From Actinomycetes bacterium (GTDB lineage: Bacteria; Actinomycetota; Actinomycetes; Nanopelagicales; Nanopelagicaceae), in the NCBI GenBank assembly GCA_025355765.1, contig JANXZB010000037.1, positions 689 through 64,688 of the forward strand: DNA of 64,000 bases, read 5' to 3'. The position numbers and the translations under genes are program-made. The notes under the pieces are model-generated. The model did not search any database and was not told the DNA's origin. It saw only the letters and a program-made list of their open reading frames with translations. Below, one piece after another: positions 41,598 through 62,206 of the stretch. Position 1 is the first letter of the stretch, and every line of letters begins with the position of its first letter.

Positions 41598-41725
41598 CAC
41601 GTTGTTCCGGGGGTCGGTGTAAATCCGAACCGGCGGTTATAGTCCGCGACCCGACCACATCCAGTGGTCGGTTGATTTGGTGAAACTCCAAAACCGACAG
41701 TTAGAGTCTGGATAAAGGGACAAAA
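41598..41725 (+). ncRNA. FMN riboswitch (RFN element) aptamer
   Basis: Matches conserved RFN blocks: CGGGGGUCGGUGUAAAUCCGAACCGGCGGU.AUAGUCCGCGACCCG ... GGUGAAACUCC ... AACCGACAGUUAGAGUCUGGAUAAAGGGA. Confidence 0.9.
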
Positions 41726-41728
41726 GTT

Positions 41729-51089: not shown

Positions 51090-52967
51090 TCATCCTTTGA
51101 GCACCTTAGCTGACACTAATTGCCGCGTAAGCAAAGGGTCCAAATGCACGGCAAAATCAACGCTCATGTGCGTGGAATCCCGATAGACAACAATCCCCTT
51201 GAGTATCGCTGGACATGATGTGGAGCAGAACCAATTTGTCGGATCAATGATGGTATTTGTGCTACCAAGACTCTGGCCTAACCACTGCTCCGAGGCGGGG
51301 CGGGAAACGGCGCATGACGCGACTTTCTCCTGTAAAAGACAGGAAGGAATATCCCTATTTGGCCAAGGGGTGTCCTGGATGTAGATGGAGTGCTGGGTTA
51401 AAGCATGCAAGCGAACCATCGTGGACGTAACACCTTTTCTCCACCAGAGTGCGGCGTCCGCGACACCATTCGGTGGCGAATAATGCTCAAAATTAGAGAC
51501 GACTACCGCCCAAGGATGCTCTGCTTGAATTCTTCTAAATGAATTCTCGCGCCAAAGCTGGCATGGGCCATTGCGAAAAGCACCTTGATCTGCAAGTTGA
51601 ACACTTGCCGCAGGGCAACTCGATTTAGTGAGAACTACCAATTTGAAGCCACCATTTGCGGCAATTGAATTCAAGGTCGGAAACCACTGCGCCGCATGTG
51701 AGTCCCCAAAGAGAAATATCGACTTGGTTCCGTAGATGTCGCCATAGACACACGGTGGTGAGGTTGTGGCCGTCTTGCCCACTTGGCAGCCATCAGCGTA
51801 AATCGCCGGTAATCGGGTAATGGCCTTAAGTGCGGTGGTACCTGCGATTCCTCTGATCTGTAGATCCTTAGCCGAAGAGTAGGAAATTCCTACGCCCAGA
51901 ATTGACACTATGAGCGTGCCGAGCGCGGCGAGGCGAATTACGGACGAGAAGGGTTTGTGAACATGGCGTAAGGGATTCTCCACGAAGCGATGCGTTAAGC
52001 CAGCAAGTATGAAGGTTAGAGCAATTGAACCTAACCGCTGCAGAATTGAAAGCGGGGCATGAATGACGTAGATAGGAAGGACTAAAGCTGGCCAGTGCCA
52101 CAAATACAAAGGATAGGAGACGTCACCGATCCATTGAATTAACCGCAGATTAAAAACCCACGAGAGCACAGGAGGTAACTCCTTGACCAGAAAAAGTAGC
52201 AAGGCCGCCCCAAGGGTCGGCAACAGGGCCGCTCGCCCAGGGAAAAGCGTGTTCTCGTTGAACGAAAATGCTGCAACGAATATCCCCGCCAGGGCCAGCC
52301 AACTCGCAGAGCGCAGTCGACGAAACTCTATGGGAAGGTCGCGCGCGAACACCACGAGTGCGCCAAGACCGAGTTCCCATGCCCTTGTCGGAAGTGAATA
52401 GAACGTCCAAATCGGGAACTTTGACGTTGCGAACAATGAGAGTGCGAATGAGAAGAGGGTGACCATTGCAAGGACCTTGAAAACCCGCGAACTTCGACTA
52501 TTTCTTGCAGCTATCAAGATAATTAGAGGCCAGAGAAGGTAGAACTGCTCCTCGACGGCAAGTGACCAGAAGTGGATGATCGGTGACGGAGTTGCCCCAA
52601 GATTTTGGTAATCATTTTGCCACCAGGCGAATACGTAGTTGCTCACGTACAGTGCGGCCGCGACAATATTTCGCCCGAGGTTTGCTCGCGCACTTGAGGG
52701 CATCACTATAAAAGAAATGACCGCCGTCGAGACAAGAACGAGAAAGGTGGAGGGGAGGAGTCGTTTGATTCGTCGCGAGTAGAAGTTCGGCAGAGAAATG
52801 GACCCTGTCTCTTTCAGCTCTCGCAAAAGCAGACCCGTTATGAGATACCCCGAGATCACGTAAAAGATATCGACGCCTATGAATCCGCCCGAGAGAAATT
52901 TGCCGTGGAAGGCAATGACCAGAAGCACCGCCAAGGCACGCAGACCTTGAATCTCTTTGATACGCAT
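51090..52967 (-). CDS. Acyltransferase-3 family membrane O-acyltransferase with C-terminal SGNH-like domain (OafA/YrhL-like)
   Basis: 625 aa with the N-terminus IQGLRALAVLLVIAFH, about 10 TM helices and an extracytoplasmic C-terminal domain (FLFGDSHAAQW). Its start overlaps the apt stop (TAATG). Confidence 0.85.
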   Translation of the reverse strand: MRIKEIQGLRALAVLLVIAFHGKFLSGGFIGVDIFYVISGYLITGLLLRELKETGSISLPNFYSRRIKRLLPSTFLVLVSTAVISFIVMPSSARANLGRNIVAAALYVSNYVFAWWQNDYQNLGATPSPIIHFWSLAVEEQFYLLWPLIILIAARNSRSSRVFKVLAMVTLFSFALSLFATSKFPIWTFYSLPTRAWELGLGALVVFARDLPIEFRRLRSASWLALAGIFVAAFSFNENTLFPGRAALLPTLGAALLLFLVKELPPVLSWVFNLRLIQWIGDVSYPLYLWHWPALVLPIYVIHAPLSILQRLGSIALTFILAGLTHRFVENPLRHVHKPFSSVIRLAALGTLIVSILGVGISYSSAKDLQIRGIAGTTALKAITRLPAIYADGCQVGKTATTSPPCVYGDIYGTKSIFLFGDSHAAQWFPTLNSIAANGGFKLVVLTKSSCPAASVQLADQGAFRNGPCQLWRENSFRRIQAEHPWAVVVSNFEHYSPPNGVADAALWWRKGVTSTMVRLHALTQHSIYIQDTPWPNRDIPSCLLQEKVASCAVSRPASEQWLGQSLGSTNTIIDPTNWFCSTSCPAILKGIVVYRDSTHMSVDFAVHLDPLLTRQLVSAKVLKG

Positions 52968-53500
52968 TACACGGTGAAGATCGAGTGCACTGGAACCTCA
53001 GGAAATTCCAAGGCGATTCGCTTGCGAGATTCTAAAGAAGAGATTTCGAGAACTGAGCCGACCGCCGACACGGTTCCCCCTGATCGGGAGATCAACCGAA
53101 TGCCGGCGCAGATTGTTCCTCCAGTCGCAAGTACATCGTCTATAAGGAGGACTCGGGACCCAATTTCGATGGCATCTTGATGAATTGCGATGACATCTGA
53201 ACCATATTCAAGGCCATAACTTTCCTCATGAGTGTCGAAGGGCAATTTGCCTTTCTTGCGTATGGGTACGAACCCCAATCCAGTTGCATATGCAATTGCA
53301 GCTGCAAATATGAAGCCGCGCGCTTCAACACCGGCCACGACGTCGCACGCTTGGGCAAGCGGCATAAATTCTGAGATGACAGCCTGGAAGGAGGGGCCGT
53401 GGGCAAGTAATGGCGTCAAGTCTTGGAATGAAATCCCTGGAATGGGGTAGTCAGGAATCTGCCTTATTAAGGCGCGAGCCTGCGCCAGGGCTGAATCCAT
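52967..53500 (-). CDS. apt: Adenine phosphoribosyltransferase
   Basis: 177 aa with IPDYPIPGI.F.D.TPLL and the PRTase motif (VLLIDDVLATGGT). Confidence 0.94.
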   Translation of the reverse strand: MDSALAQARALIRQIPDYPIPGISFQDLTPLLAHGPSFQAVISEFMPLAQACDVVAGVEARGFIFAAAIAYATGLGFVPIRKKGKLPFDTHEESYGLEYGSDVIAIHQDAIEIGSRVLLIDDVLATGGTICAGIRLISRSGGTVSAVGSVLEISSLESRKRIALEFPEVPVHSIFTV

Positions 53501-53551
53501 GTAGGAAGATTACCGCCAATCGCGCCGCCCTTAGGCTCAAAATCGCCTACA

Positions 53552-53652
53552 CCCACAAGGTGCATGGTCAATTTATCCAGAACTCTCACAGAATGGCGAC
53601 CCAATCTTGCGTTGTAAAGCAAATCAGCTTTGCACTTGCGAGGAGGTACCTC
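53552..53652 (+). promoter_or_regulatory. Conserved ~100-nt leader, copy 1 of 3 (unknown cis-regulatory element)
   Basis: Aligns with 54503-54605 and 55508-55610. Shared blocks are CCCACA.GGTGC.GG.TC.ATTTA, CAGAACTCTCACAGAAT and GCTTTGCACTTGC..GGAGGT.C.CATG. Confidence 0.6.
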
Positions 53653-54420
53653 ATGAAAAGAAACAAGATCGTCACAGCCACACTGCTAAGTGCTGGCTTG
53701 ATCTTAGGAACAACGAGCGCAGCATTTGCTGTCGACCCAACACCTACTGCAACTGTGACCACGGCTAACTACAACTCTCAGGTAGCGGCGTACAACTCTT
53801 CACTGATTGCATTTGATAGCGCAACTGCGACATTCAAGCTTCAGGTAGCTACGTATGCGACGGCGTTCCAGGTGTACAAAACTTCATATAACACTGCACT
53901 CCAGACTTACAAAGCAATTCTGAAGGCGAACTCGCCTGCAACCACCGCCGCCCAATACGCGGTCTTAGTGACTGCGTACAACACCGCAATGACTGCCTTT
54001 ACCACCGCTACGGTGACTTATAAGGCCGCATTGAGTGTTTACCAAGGTGCTGGAGTAACTTACAAGAGTGCATTCCAGAGCATTTCACAGGCTTACAAGG
54101 CTGTCTCTGAATCACGCGAACAGTTGAAGAAATCCATCAATGGTGCTTTTGACACTGCAGTTCACAATGCGAATGTTGCGTTCGCCAATGCAATGTCAAC
54201 GGCCACAACTGACGCTCAGAAAACTGCTGCCACCAATGCTCGTCAAAATGCGATTGCTGCTGCAGTCGTCGCCCGCAAAGCAGGCATTGACGCCCTAGGC
54301 GTCAAGCTTGTAAAGCCAGTGAAGGCTGAGATCAAGGTCAGCTCCAATGACGACAGTTTCAAGGCTGATCGACCAGTACGACCAATTCGACCAGCTCATC
54401 CTGAAAAGCCAAAGAAGTAA
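53653..54420 (+). CDS. Secreted Ala/Thr/Tyr-rich heptad-repeat protein, paralogue 1 (unknown function)
   Basis: The ATG lies 8 nt after a GAGGAGG RBS. It has a Sec signal peptide (MKRNKIVTATLLSAGLILGTTSAAFA|VD), a low-complexity helical mature region and a Pro/Lys-rich C-terminal tail. Confidence 0.8.
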   Translation: MKRNKIVTATLLSAGLILGTTSAAFAVDPTPTATVTTANYNSQVAAYNSSLIAFDSATATFKLQVATYATAFQVYKTSYNTALQTYKAILKANSPATTAAQYAVLVTAYNTAMTAFTTATVTYKAALSVYQGAGVTYKSAFQSISQAYKAVSESREQLKKSINGAFDTAVHNANVAFANAMSTATTDAQKTAATNARQNAIAAAVVARKAGIDALGVKLVKPVKAEIKVSSNDDSFKADRPVRPIRPAHPEKPKK

Positions 54421-54433
54421 AGTAATGAATTAA

Positions 54434-54490
54434 TCTCCGAGAATCGCGGAGATGCAAGAAACCCCCGGCATGCGTCGGGGGTTTCTTGCA
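54434..54490 (+). terminator. Two consecutive hairpins after paralogue 1 (small hairpin plus 15-bp perfect-stem terminator-like hairpin)
   Basis: TCTCCG(54434-39) pairs with CGGAGA(54447-52). Then TGCAAGAAACCCCCG(54453-67) pairs with CGGGGGTTTCTTGCA(54476-90). Confidence 0.7.
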
Positions 54491-54502
54491 TCACGGGAGT
54501 GG

Positions 54503-54605
54503 CTCCCACAAGGTGCTGGGTCGATTTACGCAGAACTCTCACAGAATTACCCCCCAGTCTTTGGTTGTAGAGCACATTTGCTTTGCACTTGCAGGGAGGT
54601 TCCAC
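54503..54605 (+). promoter_or_regulatory. Conserved ~100-nt leader, copy 2 of 3
   Basis: See copy 1. It ends in GCAGGGAGGTTCCACATG. Confidence 0.6.
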
Positions 54606-55430
54606 ATGAAAACGAAGAAGATCATTACGGCCACACTTTTGAGTGCTGGCTTGATCTTAGGCAGTACGACCGCGGCCCATGCCGTGGATCCGACACCTAC
54701 TGCAACTCTCACTTTGGCTACTTACAATTCCCAGGTAGTCGCATATAACTCCTCGCTGATTGCATTTGACAGTGCGACAGCCACATTTAAAATTCAGGTA
54801 GCCGCATATACGACCGCTGTTCAGACTTACCAGACTTCCTACAACACGGCCCTTCAGACCTACCAAGCAATCCTTAAGGCCAATTCCCCTGTTACTACTG
54901 CGGCTCAATATGCCGTCTTAGTGGCTGCCTACAACACGGCAATGACTTCATATAACGCAGCTACCGTTACTTTCAAGGCGCAATTAAGCACCTTCCAAGC
55001 AGCAGCTGCAATTTACAACATTGCATATCAGGGCGTTCGCCAAGGGTACAAAACTCTTGAAGAGATGCGTGAGCAGTTGTTGAAGTCAATAAATGTTGCC
55101 TTCAACACCGCTGTTCAGAATGCAAATGTTGCTTTCGCAACTGCCATGTCGACAGCGACAACCGATGTTCAAAAGAGCACCGCGGTAACTACTCGTGACA
55201 GTGCAGTCGTTGCAGCCGTTGCGGTACGCAAAGCTGCTCTTGATGCCTTAGGTGCGAACCCGGTAAAGCCCGCCAATCTGCAGGTAAAGACAGGCGACAA
55301 GGACAAGGGCTTCAATGCCTTTAAGCCTGTTCAACCTGTCAAACCTGCTCATTTTGAGAAGGCTGACAACGCACGAAGCTCTAACAATTCACATAAGTCT
55401 GGTAAGTCACATAAATCAGAGAAGCATTAA
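54606..55430 (+). CDS. Secreted Ala/Thr/Tyr-rich heptad-repeat protein, paralogue 2
   Basis: Signal peptide MKTKKIITATLLSAGLILGSTTAAHA|VD. By eye it is roughly two-thirds or more identical to paralogue 1. It has a Ser/His/Lys-rich tail. Confidence 0.8.
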   Translation: MKTKKIITATLLSAGLILGSTTAAHAVDPTPTATLTLATYNSQVVAYNSSLIAFDSATATFKIQVAAYTTAVQTYQTSYNTALQTYQAILKANSPVTTAAQYAVLVAAYNTAMTSYNAATVTFKAQLSTFQAAAAIYNIAYQGVRQGYKTLEEMREQLLKSINVAFNTAVQNANVAFATAMSTATTDVQKSTAVTTRDSAVVAAVAVRKAALDALGANPVKPANLQVKTGDKDKGFNAFKPVQPVKPAHFEKADNARSSNNSHKSGKSHKSEKH

Positions 55431-55484
55431 TCTCCACAAATAATTGGAGAGGTGAAAGAACCCCTGGATCGTCGGGGGTTCTTT
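55431..55484 (+). terminator. Two consecutive hairpins after paralogue 2
   Basis: TCTCCA(55431-36) pairs with TGGAGA(55445-50). Then AAAGAACCCC(55455-64) pairs with GGGGTTCTTT(55475-84), followed by TG. Confidence 0.7.
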
Positions 55485-55507
55485 TGCATGCCGGGGAGAA
55501 CTTTTCA

Positions 55508-55610
55508 CTCCCACACGGTGCTGGGTCGATTTACGCAGGGCTTTCGCAGGGTGACACAGCATTCTTATTACGTAGAGCACATCAGCTTTGCACTTGCAGG
55601 GAGGTTCCAC
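55508..55610 (+). promoter_or_regulatory. Conserved ~100-nt leader, copy 3 of 3
   Basis: See copy 1. It carries CAGGGCTTTCGCAGGGT in place of CAGAACTCTCACAGAAT. Confidence 0.6.
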
Positions 55611-56354
55611 ATGAAGACAAATAAGTTCATCACGGCCACACTCTTGAGTGCTGGCCTGGTTCTGGGAACAACGAGTGCGGCTTTTGCCGTCGATCTTGCG
55701 CCAAGGGCAAATTTGACCGTTGCTTCATACTCATCACAAATTGCCACATATAACTTAATGTCGGCCTCGTTCGACGCCGCAACCGCGACATTTCGAACTC
55801 AAGTATCCACATATGCTGCTGCCATAGCCGCATACAAGGTTTCAGATGCCGCATTGCAGCAGACCTATCAGGCCATACTGAAGGCCAATGTTCCTGCGAC
55901 CACTGTCCTTCGCTTTGCAAACGTGATGACCGCCTATAAGACGGCCACCGTTGCTTACAACAGTTCTGCAACCCTATTCATGTCGCAGTCCAACACCTAT
56001 CAATATGCCGTGCAAAGCTACGAGAAGTCTTACCAAGCTGCCATCGCCAGCTACAAAGTCACCCTTGGCATGTACGAAGGTCTTTACGCCACTATCTATA
56101 CGGCGTTTGAGACTTCCATGCATAATGTCAACTCCACCTTCGCCGTTGCGTTGAGAGCTTCTAAGACCAAGGCTCAGAAAGCTAGCGCCATCAAGGTGCG
56201 CCACATCGCCGTGCTAGCTGCTATCGCAACTCGTAGTGCGGCCCGCGTGGAGCTCGGAGCTAAGCCAATGAGCCCGATCCAGCAGATCAAGATTGGACAG
56301 AAGGCTGATGCTTTCAAGGCTCTTCGTCCGGTCCGTCCAGTGAAGTCGGCTTAG
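55611..56354 (+). CDS. Secreted Ala/Thr/Tyr-rich heptad-repeat protein, paralogue 3 (most diverged)
   Basis: Signal peptide MKTNKFITATLLSAGLVLGTTSAAFA|VD. It has the same aromatic register as paralogues 1 and 2 and a shorter tail (RPVRPVKSA). Confidence 0.8.
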   Translation: MKTNKFITATLLSAGLVLGTTSAAFAVDLAPRANLTVASYSSQIATYNLMSASFDAATATFRTQVSTYAAAIAAYKVSDAALQQTYQAILKANVPATTVLRFANVMTAYKTATVAYNSSATLFMSQSNTYQYAVQSYEKSYQAAIASYKVTLGMYEGLYATIYTAFETSMHNVNSTFAVALRASKTKAQKASAIKVRHIAVLAAIATRSAARVELGAKPMSPIQQIKIGQKADAFKALRPVRPVKSA

Positions 56355-56384
56355 CCGATACCTAGCAGTACCGATTTGCCAGGG

Positions 56385-56411
56385 GCTCCGGAGTACGCCG
56401 GGGCTCTTTGG
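56385..56411 (+). terminator. Candidate intrinsic terminator after paralogue 3
   Basis: GCTCCGG and CCGGGGC form a stem (one G-U pair) with loop AGTACG, followed by TCTTTGGT. Confidence 0.5.
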
Positions 56412-56435
56412 TATGTGAAAACGGGAGGATCCTTG

Positions 56436-56519
56436 TGTCCGAACGGGGACTTGAACCCCGAAGCCCTTGCGGGCACTAGCACCTCAAGCTAGCGCGTCTG
56501 CCAATTCCGCCACCCGGAC
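56436..56519 (-). tRNA. tRNA-Leu (anticodon GAG)
   Basis: The reverse complement folds as a class II tRNA: acceptor GUCCGGG/UUCGGAC, anticodon stem CUAGC/GCUAG with loop UUGAGGU, a long variable arm, and a T-arm CGGGG-UUCAAGU-CCCCG. CCA is not encoded. Confidence 0.9.
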
Positions 56520-58967: not shown

Positions 58968-59681
58968 GTGGCAACGATGACATTGGTCGTCCTCATTCGC
59001 CACGCACATTCAGTTGCCAACGGTTCTGGAATTCTCGCTGGTAGAACCGAAGGGATAAGCCTTTCACCTGCTGGCAGAAAGCAGGCCCAAGAACTTGCGA
59101 AGAGACTCGGGGTAATTCCCGTTAAATCCCTTCGATCCAGCCCCTTAGAACGATGTGCCCAGACGATCTCGCCGTGGCTCAAGAAAATCGCTGATTCGAA
59201 TCCGAAACTGAAGGTTCAAGTGGACGAGGACTTGTCGGAGGTCGATTACGGAGAATGGACCGGACGCAAACTTCGTTCACTTTCCAAAGAGAGTCTATGG
59301 AAGACCGTCCAAGAAGAACCATCAAGGGTCGTATTTCCTGAGGGCGAGAGCATGCGCGCCATGCAAGAACGAGCGATGAAGGCTCTTCACCGTGCTTTAG
59401 AGATGCGAGGCAAAGGACACGTGATCCTTGTTTCTCACGGGGACGTATTGAAATCAATCATTGCCTCAGCACTTAACATGCATCTTGATGAGTTTCAAAG
59501 GATTGTCATAGATCCGGCCTCCATATCAATTCTTGACTACGCATCATCCAAGCCGAGACTCATACTTATGAATGATTCTCGCTCTCGCTTGGATCCTCAG
59601 ATATTTATGGATACCCGAAAGCGTTTGCTTGTTGGGGGAGGTTCGGGACATCCCGCCAAAGGAAATGGGAAGAGGCACTAG
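58968..59681 (+). CDS. Histidine phosphatase (phosphoglycerate-mutase-like) family protein, MSMEG_4193-type
   Basis: Has LIRHAHS (RHG-type motif) and SHGDV. It is the first gene of the conserved trio. GTG start; an alternative ATG lies at 58977. Confidence 0.8.
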   Translation: MATMTLVVLIRHAHSVANGSGILAGRTEGISLSPAGRKQAQELAKRLGVIPVKSLRSSPLERCAQTISPWLKKIADSNPKLKVQVDEDLSEVDYGEWTGRKLRSLSKESLWKTVQEEPSRVVFPEGESMRAMQERAMKALHRALEMRGKGHVILVSHGDVLKSIIASALNMHLDEFQRIVIDPASISILDYASSKPRLILMNDSRSRLDPQIFMDTRKRLLVGGGSGHPAKGNGKRH

Positions 59682-60230
59682 ATGGCGCGCATCGTAAATA
59701 GCTTTGATCCGGTGGAGCGCTTCGTCGTTGGCACGGTTGGTGAACCAGGGGAGCGAAGTTTCTTTCTACAAGCCCGTTCGGGGAAAAAGCTGACTTCTGT
59801 CCTTCTTGAAAAGTCGCAGGTGATTGCTATTGCCGATCGATTGGAGATCTTGCTTCGAGAACTTCGTCGGGTAGATCCAGCCCTAGTAATTGAGCGATTG
59901 TTAGTTGATGATCAACCTCTAGAAGCACCCATCATGGAGGAATTCCGCGTGGGCCTGGTTTCACTTTCTTGGTTGAGTGACCGCGAGATGGTTTCCGTTG
60001 AACTCCAGGCTGTAAATGAGAACGCACCAGAGAGTGAAGAAGTCTTCTCAGATGACGACTACGAAGCACCAGATCTGCTTCGAGTTATTCTCACCCCATC
60101 CCAGACCGATGCGTTTGTTAAGCGCGCAGCTGTGGTGGTAAACGCAGGTCGACCGCCATGTCCTTTCTGTGGCCTGGCCTTAGATCCGAACGGGCACGTC
60201 TGCCCGAGGGCAAATGGCTATCGACGCTAA
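59682..60230 (+). CDS. DUF3090 domain-containing protein
   Basis: 182 aa. Its ATG immediately follows the upstream TAG. It has an acidic central region and a C-terminal CPFCG...HVCPR motif. Confidence 0.75.
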   Translation: MARIVNSFDPVERFVVGTVGEPGERSFFLQARSGKKLTSVLLEKSQVIAIADRLEILLRELRRVDPALVIERLLVDDQPLEAPIMEEFRVGLVSLSWLSDREMVSVELQAVNENAPESEEVFSDDDYEAPDLLRVILTPSQTDAFVKRAAVVVNAGRPPCPFCGLALDPNGHVCPRANGYRR

Positions 60231-60927
60231 GCCTGCATTGGAGAACGCCTTACGGCTTGGGGAAATGAAGGTAACGGGTCGCCTTGTGGTTGCTTCTAAT
60301 GCGACCATGTTGGCCAAAGTTGTTCACGGAGCCTCCTCCCTCACCTGCATTTACAAGCCCATCGCGGGGGAGCGACCGCTCTGGGATTTTTCTGACGGAA
60401 CACTGGCATTTCGCGAATACGCAGCCTATGTAATCAGCGATCGGTGCGATTTTGACGTTGTACCTTTGACGGTAATTCGTGAAGGACCATTCGGGGAAGG
60501 GGCTGTGCAACTCTGGGTAGATATCGATGAGAGCATCGACATGACCGAATACTTCCAGCGTGACAATGCCGAACTCCGCAACATGGCTCTATTTGATGCC
60601 GTTATCAATAACACCGATCGCAAGATCGGCCACATACTTCCGGACACATCTGGGAAGGTGTTCGGATGCGATCATGGAGTGACCTTCCATCACGAGGATA
60701 AGTTACGGACCGTTCTGTGGCGATGGGCCGGGAGCACCATCAATGAAGAAGAATTGTCACGTCTTGAAACCGTTTCGGATTTTCTTAAGGACCCCGTCGA
60801 ATTAGAAGGCCTTCTGACAGCGGATGAGATCTCTGCCCTTCGAGGGAGGGTAACCCGCCTTCAAGAAACGGGCATTTTTCCCATGCCGAGCAAAGATTGG
60901 CCCGCGGTTCCTTGGCCACCGTACTAG
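60214..60927 (+). CDS. SCO1664-family protein (distant PI3/PI4-kinase-like)
   Basis: 237 aa, overlapping DUF3090 by 17 nt. It has NNTDRKIGH and CDHG motifs that resemble a kinase catalytic loop and metal-binding loop. Confidence 0.7.
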   Translation: MAIDAKPALENALRLGEMKVTGRLVVASNATMLAKVVHGASSLTCIYKPIAGERPLWDFSDGTLAFREYAAYVISDRCDFDVVPLTVIREGPFGEGAVQLWVDIDESIDMTEYFQRDNAELRNMALFDAVINNTDRKIGHILPDTSGKVFGCDHGVTFHHEDKLRTVLWRWAGSTINEEELSRLETVSDFLKDPVELEGLLTADEISALRGRVTRLQETGIFPMPSKDWPAVPWPPY

Positions 60928-60964
60928 AACAAGTTCGGCCTGGAAGATCCTTTAGGATGATGAA

Positions 60965-62206
60965 ATGAATTCATGGGCTGACCTTTACCTGCCACCAATT
61001 GATTCGGATTTTTCCTTTCCTGCTCTCTCGCTAAAGGATTCGGCATCCAAGAAGGTAGTGGCCCTACCGGTTAAAGATGTGTACAGAATGTATGTCTGTG
61101 GCATTACGCCATACGACGCAACGCACTTGGGACACGCCGCAACGTATGTGACCTTCGACCTGATCAATCGGTATTTACGGGCCATGGGCAAGCGCGTTCA
61201 TTTTGTCGAGAATGTGACGGATATCGATGACCCTCTCCTGGAACGTGCCAAGCGCGACAACGTTGATTGGAAAGATCTTGCTCTATCTCAGATTGAACTC
61301 TTCCGGGGCGACATGAGTGATCTCCACATAATCCCGCCCGAGAGCTATATAGGCGCAGTTGAATCAATCCCGCTTGTTGTCGAAGCCGTCACTGCCTTGC
61401 AGGGCAAAGGCGCGGTATATCAAGTCGATGACGATCTCTATTTCTCTGTGAAGTCGGATCCTAATTTTGGTTCCAAGGCAAATCTTTCCCGAGCTGAGAT
61501 GCTCGAATTATCTGCGCATCGCGGCGGAGACCCAACGCGAGCGGGAAAACACGACGCACTAGATGCACTCGTCTGGCTGCACGGGCGGATTGGCGAGCCG
61601 AGTTGGCCTTCCACTTTCGGAGATGGGCGACCTGGTTGGCATATTGAATGTTGTGCCATCGCACTCAATTACTTACCGGTCAACCACGACGAAGACTTTC
61701 TCATTGATATCCAAGGCGGCGGAAATGATCTGCTCTTCCCTCATCACGAGATCAGTGCCTCTCAAGCCGCAGTGATTTCTGGAAAAGAGTACGCACGGGT
61801 CTACGTACACGCAGGTCTTATTGGACTTGATGGTGAAAAGATGAGCAAGAGCTTGGGGAATCTTGTTTTTCTCTCCAAATTGGTGGCAGAGGGAGCCAAT
61901 CCGCTTGCGGTACGGCTTGCCCTCATGTCCGATCACTATTCAAAGGACCGCATGTGGACCATCGATCAACTCGATCAAGCCACGCGATTTCTCGATCGAT
62001 TGCGTTTATTGCTCTCGCGTCCAGAAGTGGCTCCTACGCGCGATGTTGTACAGCAGTTAATCAATGCCATTTCACATGATCTAGATACCCCGAGCGCGAT
62101 TAATATTTTGAAGATCTGGTGTGACGAAACCGAAAGAGGATCTACTGGGGGATCCGCTGGCGAACTATCGCGAGCAATTGACTTGCTATTGGGTCTTGCA
62201 ATCTAG
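60965..62206 (+). CDS. mshC: Cysteine--1-D-myo-inosityl 2-amino-2-deoxy-alpha-D-glucopyranoside ligase (mycothiol ligase)
   Basis: 413 aa, CysRS-like class I, with a HIGH-type motif (HLGHAATY) and KMSKS. It lacks the CysRS anticodon-binding extension. The length and the trio context fit MshC rather than CysS. Confidence 0.85.
   Translation: MNSWADLYLPPIDSDFSFPALSLKDSASKKVVALPVKDVYRMYVCGITPYDATHLGHAATYVTFDLINRYLRAMGKRVHFVENVTDIDDPLLERAKRDNVDWKDLALSQIELFRGDMSDLHIIPPESYIGAVESIPLVVEAVTALQGKGAVYQVDDDLYFSVKSDPNFGSKANLSRAEMLELSAHRGGDPTRAGKHDALDALVWLHGRIGEPSWPSTFGDGRPGWHIECCAIALNYLPVNHDEDFLIDIQGGGNDLLFPHHEISASQAAVISGKEYARVYVHAGLIGLDGEKMSKSLGNLVFLSKLVAEGANPLAVRLALMSDHYSKDRMWTIDQLDQATRFLDRLRLLLSRPEVAPTRDVVQQLINAISHDLDTPSAINILKIWCDETERGSTGGSAGELSRAIDLLLGLAI

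Follow-up and report, generated by a model that had tools for sequence, protein, structure and literature searches.

Three paralogous genes lie between apt and a tRNA-Leu gene

We analyzed a 64,000-nucleotide stretch of DNA from an Actinomycetes bacterium of the family Nanopelagicaceae (GenBank assembly GCA_025355765.1, contig JANXZB010000037.1, positions 689 to 64,688 of the forward strand), referred to here as the window, and focused on a tandem array of genes for secreted proteins between apt and a tRNA-Leu gene. In fresh waters, Nanopelagicales and their relatives rank among the most abundant bacteria and, to our knowledge, almost nothing is known of their envelope proteins or signalling outputs. 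Genomes of this group carry few paralogues and few regulators (PMC12817590). The original prediction, made from the letters of the window, had described three tandem modules at this position, and we confirmed them as three paralogous coding sequences (CDS) on the plus strand within a 300-nt direct repeat family. The repeats are spaced 953 and 1005 nt from start to start with identities of 78% and 67%, and each takes in the upstream region as well as ~200 nt at the start of the CDS. The array and its flanks are organized as follows.

51090-52967, minus strand: O-acyltransferase with AT3 and SGNH domains (PF01757, 1.4e-29; PF19040, 9e-25)
52967-53500, minus strand: apt (PF00156), the left flank of the array
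53653-54420, plus strand: copy 1 CDS, 255 aa; signal peptide 53653-53730, cleaved between AFA and VD; predicted helices at residues 37-92, 99-183 and 187-215; Pro/Lys tail at residues 217-255
54433-54492, plus strand: terminator region 1, with a small hairpin (54433-54453) and a GC-rich stem (54451-54492)
54606-55430, plus strand: copy 2 CDS, 274 aa; signal peptide 54606-54683
55431-55487, plus strand: terminator region 2, with a small hairpin (55431-55450) and a 16-bp stem (55452-55487), then CTTTTGC
55611-56354, plus strand: copy 3 CDS, 247 aa; signal peptide 55611-55688
56377-56413, plus strand: terminator-like GC-rich stem after copy 3, then TTTGGTAT
56435-56519, minus strand: tRNA-Leu(GAG)

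The acyltransferase had been named as the gene adjacent to the array, which was wrong, as apt lies between the two. The hairpins said to follow each copy were found. Copies 1 and 2 are each followed by a small hairpin close to the stop codon and a strong stem; the stem of terminator 1 is a perfect 17-bp duplex (100% complementary) with a TTTCTTGC tract within its 3' arm. The stretch around terminator 1 (54418-54505) folds at -44.9 kcal/mol with a z-score of -7.4, and that around terminator 2 (55428-55500) at -31.9 kcal/mol with a z-score of -4.4. The stem after copy 3 (stretch 56352-56420, -25.8 kcal/mol, z-score -1.4) is weaker than these two and not significant alone. The GC content of the three genes (0.48-0.52) is close to the 0.52 of the window, and base composition gives no sign of a recent transfer of the array.

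The mechanically called open reading frames (ORFs) at 53410-54420, 54486-55430 and 55452-56354 overrun the real ATG codons by 80, 40 and 53 codons and run through the promoter region described below. Database entries, among them P0001 (324 aa), P0002 (320 aa) and P0036, carry spurious N-terminal extensions, and exact look-up therefore misses copies 1 and 2. The protein of copy 3, which is of an older paralogue type, is identical to the database protein P0014.

The genes encode exported coiled-coil proteins of an unrecognised family

Copies 1 and 2 are 67% identical at the protein level, and each is 47% identical to copy 3. The signal peptide is near-invariant across the three proteins (MK..K..TATLLSAGL.LG.T.AA.A before the cleavage site, VD after it) and reads as MK(R/T)(N/K)K, a hydrophobic stretch, AA(F/H)A and then VD. 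The n-h-c layout, the AxA site, the lack of any Cys and the lack of LPXTG agree with Sec export and cleavage by signal peptidase I. The original prediction of a near-identical Sec signal peptide, a shared C-terminal tail motif (F.A..PV.P(V/I)(K/R)), no Cys or Trp, no lipobox and no LPXTG was thus correct as far as the sequences go. Ala makes up ~20% of the proteins and Thr 9.5-12%, and the pI of the mature parts is 9.6-10. The tail of copy 2 is His/Ser/Lys-rich and longer than those of copies 1 and 3.

AlphaFold2 (AF2), given a 14-sequence alignment, modelled this long form of the protein as a three-helix coiled-coil rod (pLDDT 73.8, pTM 0.57) with helices at residues 37-92, 99-183 and 187-215, the central one 85 residues in length; the signal peptide and the tail (228-255) are disordered in the model. 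In each of helices 1 and 2, Tyr/Phe occupies six successive heptad positions 'd', with aliphatic residues at 'a'. The other heptad positions hold Thr, Ser, Asn, Gln, Ala or Lys and almost no acidic residues, so that the long-form protein is modelled as an uncharged-polar, net-cationic rod.

The claim that the family was an unrecognised one was upheld by profile and structure searches, which led to no characterised family. Pfam, NCBIfam and PHROGs gave no significant match for the long or the short forms (the latter are described below); in the Pfam scan of 13 family members the best match to LTXXQ had an E-value of 0.75 (P0054). The search of PDB sequences returned nothing below E 0.2, and Foldseek against PDB gave a best E-value of 0.077 with the long-form model and no structural neighbour with the short-form model (best E 1.0). 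We considered the Foldseek matches to SH3BP5, F-BAR proteins, a colicin R domain, the AcrA hairpin, the coiled coils of RipA and PcsB and alpha-pore-forming toxins (alpha-PFTs), and rejected them as kinship since they reflect generic long-helix similarity.

A role as helical toxins or adhesins that are secreted against other cells, in the manner of alpha-PFTs or the receptor-binding hairpins of colicins, is in our view highly improbable. The weak matches at the top of the Foldseek list do include the alpha-PFT components AhlB, SmhB and MakE and colicin R-domains, but every match has E>=0.07, a TM-score of 0.2-0.4 and an rmsd of 5-30 Å, and those to AhlB, SmhB and MakE (E 0.14-0.5, TM 0.2-0.34) do not amount to a shared fold. 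The proteins have neither a hydrophobic head nor a beta-tongue, and no hydrophobic segment past the signal peptide; no immunity, partner or secretion-system genes lie nearby.

Among 5.8e9 clustered proteins we found 17 close homologues, which are without a Pfam domain and whose sole source name is 'hypothetical protein'. An exhaustive profile search recovered 295 representatives at E<=1e-3 (~300 clusters), most of them 140-230 aa in length and aligning only with the C-terminal ~90 residues of the profile. These short forms share a signal peptide, a Pro/Thr linker, a conserved core and a PxxP/K-rich tail, and likewise have no Pfam or NCBIfam assignment. The core consensus is I-N-x2-F-x2-A...A-K-T-x2-Q-K...R-x2-A-I-x2-A-x3-R-x2-A-x3-L-G. 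Alignment of the long and short forms with hhalign gave a probability of 99.8% (E 1.3e-28). The AF2 model of the short form shows an asymmetric hairpin (core pLDDT >95) with helices at 40-90 and 94-121. Compared to the short form, the window proteins contain an insertion of ~100 residues, the aromatic-heptad hairpin, which in the models turns the conserved asymmetric-hairpin core into the three-helix rod.

The relatives are metagenome-assembled genomes (MAGs) labelled Candidatus Nanopelagicaceae, Actinomycetota or Actinomycetes, with a few labelled 'Bifidobacterium', and their sample names and labels point to soil, groundwater and freshwater as their apparent sources. The family is a lineage-restricted one of Nanopelagicales-like Actinomycetota, made up of Sec-exported, basic, all-helical proteins. 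Some members, L013:4646-5821, P0008 (425 aa) and P0018 (507 aa), consist of a pair of full helical domains in a single chain, connected by a (P-x-x-K/V-P)n linker, so that the module is able to duplicate within a gene and not just as tandem genes.

Each gene is preceded by a conserved promoter-like module

We aligned 36 leaders (~-100 to the ATG) from the three window copies and 26 other loci and found ~110 nt of upstream sequence to be conserved. The elements that we recognized upstream of the window genes, all on the plus strand, are listed here.

53553-53607, plus strand: predicted promoter of module 1, with box1 CCACAAG (53553-53559), box2 ATCCAGA (53575-53581), box3 TCACAGA (53586-53592) and a -10-like CAATCT (53602-53607)
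53614-53652, plus strand: predicted 5' untranslated region (5'UTR) of module 1, with the predicted start at G53614, a hairpin (53614-53633, fold -13.3 kcal/mol) and a Shine-Dalgarno (SD) sequence GAGGAGG (53640-53646)
54506-54560, plus strand: predicted promoter of module 2, with box1 CCACAAG (54506-54512), box2 ACGCAGA (54528-54534), spacer ACTC, box3 TCACAGA (54539-54545) and a -10-like CAGTCT (54555-54560)
54567-54605, plus strand: predicted 5'UTR of module 2, with a hairpin (54567-54586) and SD GGGAGG (54594-54599)
55511-55565, plus strand: predicted promoter of module 3, with box1 CCACACG (55511-55517), box2 ACGCAGG (55533-55539), spacer GCTT, box3 TCGCAGG (55544-55550) and a -10-like CATTCT (55560-55565)
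55572-55610, plus strand: predicted 5'UTR of module 3, with a hairpin (55572-55591) and SD GGGAGG (55599-55604)

Across the 36 leaders, box1 has an invariant C.C within C-R-C-A; box2 lies 22 bp 3' of box1 with an invariant CAG, and box3 lies 11 bp 3' of box2 with an invariant C..A. The last two boxes form a direct repeat of two 7-bp units separated by 4 bp, with an 11-bp period (ACGCAGA-ACTC-TCACAGA in copy 2). A (C/T)AnnnT hexamer follows 9 bp after box3; it is mostly CAGTCT, CAGTAT or CAATAT, and its second and sixth letters (A and T) never vary. The scan of the leaders with a sigma-70 consensus found no canonical promoter and no TTGACA-like -35 hexamer, which is consistent with dependence on an activator but does not prove it. 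The composite motif occurs 37 times on both strands of the 327 kb of sequence that we fetched; 35 of these sites are immediately upstream of family genes and the remaining two are chance sites inside apt. The promoter-like module was present at the family genes throughout, those of the window included, save for one decaying copy in a relative (described below). Elsewhere in the window, the box pair (<=2 mismatches) marks no other genes, as it gave four matches against 2.1 expected and three of the four are the leaders themselves.

The promoter-like module begins ~14-24 nt after the preceding terminator. Only 14 nt separate the end of terminator 1 from box1 of module 2, so that the predicted promoter must lie inside the conserved block. 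Seven nucleotides past the hexamer, an invariant G opens a 7-bp hairpin, which is paired in 91% of cells of the alignment compared to 25-45% when the partners are slid, and three of its pairs show compensatory changes. In 31 of the 36 sequences the hairpin contains a U.G pair that would be a C.A mismatch on the opposite strand; the hairpin therefore works in the sense RNA. A 5'-terminal stem-loop is a known mRNA-stabilising arrangement. We read the block as a ~60 bp activator-dependent promoter followed by a 39-nt 5'UTR that ends in GGGAGG, 6 nt before the ATG, with the transcription start, the binding and the activation all predicted. The leader of ~100 nt in the original prediction is conserved as described, but most of it would be promoter DNA and not transcribed leader. 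With its own terminator and a complete promoter-like module, each gene has the layout of the separately terminated transcription unit that had been proposed.

It is very unlikely that the ~110-nt leader is instead transcribed as a whole and regulates in cis as a structured RNA (for instance as a riboswitch, a thermometer or a leader bound by a protein) in which an upstream CUCC sequesters the GGAG of the SD. RNAalifold does pair the CTCC at the 5' edge with that GGAG, with all variation being C to U and thus compatible with G.U pairing, and the hairpin before the SD is conserved. However, the anti-SD helix is without compensatory change, the consensus fold energy is a mere -8.9 kcal/mol, and what is conserved takes the form of direct repeats with an 11-bp phase instead of helices. 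The position of the preceding terminators, which end ~14-24 nt upstream, leaves no room for a promoter outside the block. No leader had a match in Rfam at the gathering threshold or even at E<=10, and we rejected the riboswitch reading, as RNAalifold gave just the 7-bp hairpin and the anti-SD helix without covariation.

The arrangement of the boxes resembles that of the pho box, a direct repeat ~10 bp upstream of the -10 that stands without a -35 and typifies class II activation by the PhoB family. PhoP of Mycobacterium tuberculosis binds TCACAGC-N4-TCACAGC as a tandem dimer, for which the 4-bp spacer is strictly required (PMC4832192). The family repeat, ACGCAGA-N4-TCACAGA, has the same two 7-bp units and 4-bp spacer, and it lies 9 bp from the hexamer, the putative -10, in place of a -35. 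The family leaders differ by the extra lone box 22 bp upstream. By its letters, then, the predicted promoter matches PhoB/PhoP-type sites in every feature that can be tested in silico.

Some family genes lie head-to-head with a two-component system

In six of nine distant loci, a family gene lies head-to-head with an OmpR-type response regulator, followed by a HisKA/HATPase kinase. The nine loci are grouped below.

L011, L013, L024/25, L026/27, L029, L030: regulator/kinase pair divergent from the family gene
L031: regulator/kinase pair adjacent but convergent
L022/23, L028 (Planktophila type): not adjacent to the orthologous system

The linked regulators are 62-82% identical to each other, contain Response_reg and Trans_reg_C domains, and have M. 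tuberculosis PhoP (E 2e-50) and PrrA (E 1e-49) as their best PDB matches, PhoP being the closest solved homologue. The recognition helix, (S/T/G)VVDTYISYLRRK, is strictly conserved save for its first residue and corresponds to NVVESYVSYLRRK in PhoP; the Arg of the wing is conserved as well. Between two hydrophobic segments the kinase has an extracytoplasmic loop of ~120 aa, which we read from the sequence as a periplasmic-type sensor domain. The kinase-linked family genes, the older members of the family, encode short-form relatives. The kinase-linked copies of L013 and an apt-island copy (L005) belong to one and the same MAG, so that both kinds can occur together in a single genome.

A conserved GAGCGTATA/GAGGGTAT block adjoins the start codon of the response regulator on the opposite strand (L013:4491-4560, L011, L029, L024, L030); it could serve as the promoter of the regulator gene itself or as a site of autoregulation. 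In all four gene-called loci (L024/25, L026/27, L029, L030) the kinase is followed by a Methyltransf_32 gene (PF13679), which encodes ~394 aa without a signal peptide (L024:1385-2572, L026:1867-3051, L029:609-1793 and L030:606-1787, minus strand). A connection between this methyltransferase and the Lys-rich tails of the family proteins is speculation on our part. The mycobacterial protein HBHA combines a coiled coil with a C-terminal Lys/Ala/Pro-rich basic tail that binds anionic polymers at the cell surface and whose lysines are methylated; it is not known to have a cleavable Sec signal peptide. As a lead, HBHA resembles the family in its coiled-coil body and disordered cationic Lys/Pro-rich tail, with a methyltransferase gene conserved in the linked operon; it differs in that the PDB and Pfam searches found no sequence similarity and in that the family has a cleavable Sec signal peptide.

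The genes cpxP and zraP are divergent from their cognate two-component systems, of the OmpR and NtrC type respectively, and are the strongest targets of these systems. Exported proteins of the CpxP/ZraP type encoded beside cognate two-component systems have been reviewed (PMC6737893). Like CpxP, ZraP and Spy, the family proteins are small, Sec-exported and all-alpha, as judged from the AF2 models and the AxA signal peptide, and the short-form relatives share the head-to-head arrangement in six lineages, with a regulator-type repeat in the shared intergenic region. The differences are several. The three window genes have no regulator or kinase with them in the 64-kb window, are of the long form and are triplicated; no sequence or profile similarity to CpxP/Spy/ZraP (LTXXQ, PF07813) was found, and an LT..Q pattern is absent from the three window proteins. 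CpxP and Spy were not retrieved by Foldseek. CpxP, ZraP and Spy are proteobacterial, whereas the hosts of the family are monoderm actinobacteria and its members have a Pro/Lys-rich basic tail. DbfQ of Vibrio cholerae, a small exported PepSY protein encoded beside DbfRS, controls the kinase by binding its sensor domain, and such modules are reported across phyla (PMC12714742). The family resembles DbfQ in being encoded beside a kinase/regulator pair, but it forms a helical hairpin or rod without a PepSY match in the Pfam scans, and kinase binding by the family is a candidate property.

The family proteins could be extracytoplasmic feedback modulators of the sensor kinase, following the logic of CpxP, ZraP and DbfQ: the protein would bind the sensor domain and set the balance of kinase and phosphatase activity, and the window copies would be extra or diverged modulators instead of structural effectors. 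The small, secreted, all-helical short forms head-to-head with the two-component system support this idea, in the same arrangement as cpxP-cpxRA and zraP-zraSR (PMC6737893) and in parallel to dbfQ-dbfRS (PMC12714742), and so does the ~120-aa extracytoplasmic loop of the kinase. We nevertheless regard it as unlikely. The proteins have no LTXXQ motif, Pfam match or PepSY domain, three dispersed, fast-diverging long forms in a surface-related island suit a stoichiometric kinase ligand poorly, and the aromatic hairpin and long basic tails would be superfluous for binding a kinase.

The fast-evolving array lies in a flexible island

We compared 20 related loci and found the gene order TK, an AT3-SGNH acyltransferase or an unrelated 395-aa ORF, apt, one to three family genes, tRNA-Leu, an M20 peptidase and an aldo-keto reductase (AKR). 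Two landmarks delimit the island in the window.

51090-53500, minus strand: acyltransferase and apt, on the left of the flexible island; they vary or are replaced in relatives
56435-56519, minus strand: tRNA-Leu(GAG), the right boundary, 100% conserved in nine relatives and 98.8% in a tenth

In the relatives, some of the intervals from apt to tRNA-Leu contain unannotated secreted ORFs in addition to the family genes. Across the loci, TK, M20 and AKR are 89-98% identical at the protein level compared to 57-86% for the family proteins, and in some loci the identity of apt falls to 58-64%. In comparison with the four closest relatives, the family genes show dN/dS values of 0.09-0.15, indicative of purifying selection, and the flanking genes show 0.009-0.021 in those comparisons that allowed an estimate of dS (TK, M20 and AKR against L004; TK against L010). 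The genes are therefore functional, and their proteins evolve 5-10 times faster than the flanks. In the neighbour-joining tree the copies fall into c1-, c2- and c3-type orthologue clades, each spanning several species; both duplications thus predate those species, with c3 being the oldest. These results bear out the proposal that the duplications are of different ages and that all three copies have stayed intact.

The survey of relatives for copy number, which had been suggested with the original prediction, returned one to three copies. One relative carries a third, middle copy (L010:6890-7681, equivalent to P0019) in which the promoter boxes and the SD are replaced by unrelated sequence; it has an aberrant C-terminus and a long branch in the tree and is probably a decaying copy, the only one to have lost these elements. 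Its missing promoter indicates turnover within the array. Other signal-peptide ORFs found in the same interval are Cys-containing proteins of ~350 aa, proteins of ~420 aa and a DUF333 protein (L003:8891-9943, L002:6928-7977, L007:6818-7969; L008:7860-9146, L009:5010-6266; L001:3591-4511). Except for DUF333 they have no Pfam match, and none has the family promoter motif. In several relatives an unrelated ORF of ~395-400 aa without a Pfam match replaces AT3-SGNH (L008:2510-3697, L016:3114-4319, minus strand); at these same loci apt is 58-64% identical and TK ~95%. This suggests that the whole left part of the island was swapped by recombination in those relatives. The hypervariable, surface-related island and the fast evolution of the proteins fit a surface-exposed role.

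Such a role could also be that of a coat or matrix made constitutively and in large amounts at the cell surface (for instance a fibril, an S-layer-like lattice or a mask over phage receptors), in which case the upstream block would be a strong lineage-specific promoter with a stabilising 5' hairpin and the proximity of the two-component system would be incidental. The strong SD, the 5'-terminal hairpin and the strong terminator that each gene has for itself speak for a coat, as do the variable copy number (1-3), the low identity of the family relative to TK, M20 and AKR, the cell-surface O-acyltransferase and other secreted ORFs in the island, and a helix surface with little charge and much Thr, Ser, Asn, Gln and Ala, a composition that would be conducive to self-assembly. 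This explanation is improbable in our view, as at least six divergent lineages have a family gene next to an orthologous regulator/kinase pair and the boxes have the exact 7-4-7 form of OmpR/PhoB-family sites without a -35 hexamer. Furthermore, the proteins lack SLH, LPXTG or any other known anchoring module, and codon usage shows no sign of high expression.

A tentative model of regulation and function

We favour, tentatively and at somewhat less than even odds, the explanation that the family proteins are envelope effectors switched on by a PhoP/PrrA-like two-component system through the shared promoter module. The phosphorylated regulator would bind the 7-4-7 repeat ACGCAGA-ACTC-TCACAGA, 9 bp 5' of the (C/T)AnnnT -10, and replace the function of a -35, thereby switching on all family genes. 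Transcription would start at the G that opens the conserved 5' hairpin, the hairpin would stabilise the mRNA, the strong GGGAGG SD would drive translation, and each unit would stop at its own terminator. The proteins would be a dedicated output of an envelope-sensing system, with the short form possibly feeding back on the kinase, and the array of three would be an amplified, diverging effector set in a surface-related flexible island.

A number of observations weigh against this explanation. No family-linked regulator or kinase is encoded within the window, so that co-occurrence of the two in this genome is unproven, and the family loci L022 and L028 in Planktophila are away from the orthologous system. 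The regulator scores below every NCBIfam equivalog cut-off, so that its identity as 'PhoP' is not established, and when its recognition helix SVVDTYISYLRRK is set against NVVESYVSYLRRK of PhoP, three contact residues differ (N to S/T/G, E to D and S to T). Box2 of module 1 is degenerate (ATCCAGA), and the -10-like hexamer starts with C instead of T in all leaders save two (the Planktophila-type L022 and L028, TACTTT). Codon bias carries no expression signal and is uninformative, with all genes at Nc values of 50-61. Finally, we purely infer that after cleavage between AxA and VD the elongated coiled coils would assemble in the cell envelope and be retained by the cationic Pro/Lys tail, and the same holds for oligomerisation and any stress role of the family proteins.

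A more ambitious version of the explanation is doubtful. It posits a lineage-specific envelope signalling module in which the secreted coiled-coil family is both the transcriptional output and an extracellular partner of the PhoP/PrrA-like system, amplified in some lineages into a fast-evolving, individually promoted array in a cell-surface flexible island. If true, envelope sensing would be linked through this module to a variable surface coat that might serve, for example, in the evasion of phages or grazers or in stress protection.

The link to the two-component system, the anatomy of the promoter, the wider short-form family and the flexible island go beyond the original prediction. For the family we now have a predicted fold and a predicted regulator, together with a precise candidate binding site and a putative start of transcription, and three 'hypothetical proteins' have become a directly testable candidate regulator-target pair; a hypervariable surface-related island has been flagged as well. 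The analysis offers no new principle, as two-component systems to which small exported proteins are coupled have been described before.

Other features of the window

An FMN riboswitch (RF00050, 96.9 bits, E 4e-21) was detected at 41599-41726 on the plus strand, directly 5' of an ORF starting at ~41732. Downstream of the array, the region 58968-62206 encodes a histidine phosphatase, a DUF3090 protein and a 413-aa class-I Cys-tRNA-synthetase-like ligase (MshC-like). These are core actinobacterial genes, and they are consistent with the backbone of an Actinomycetota chromosome.

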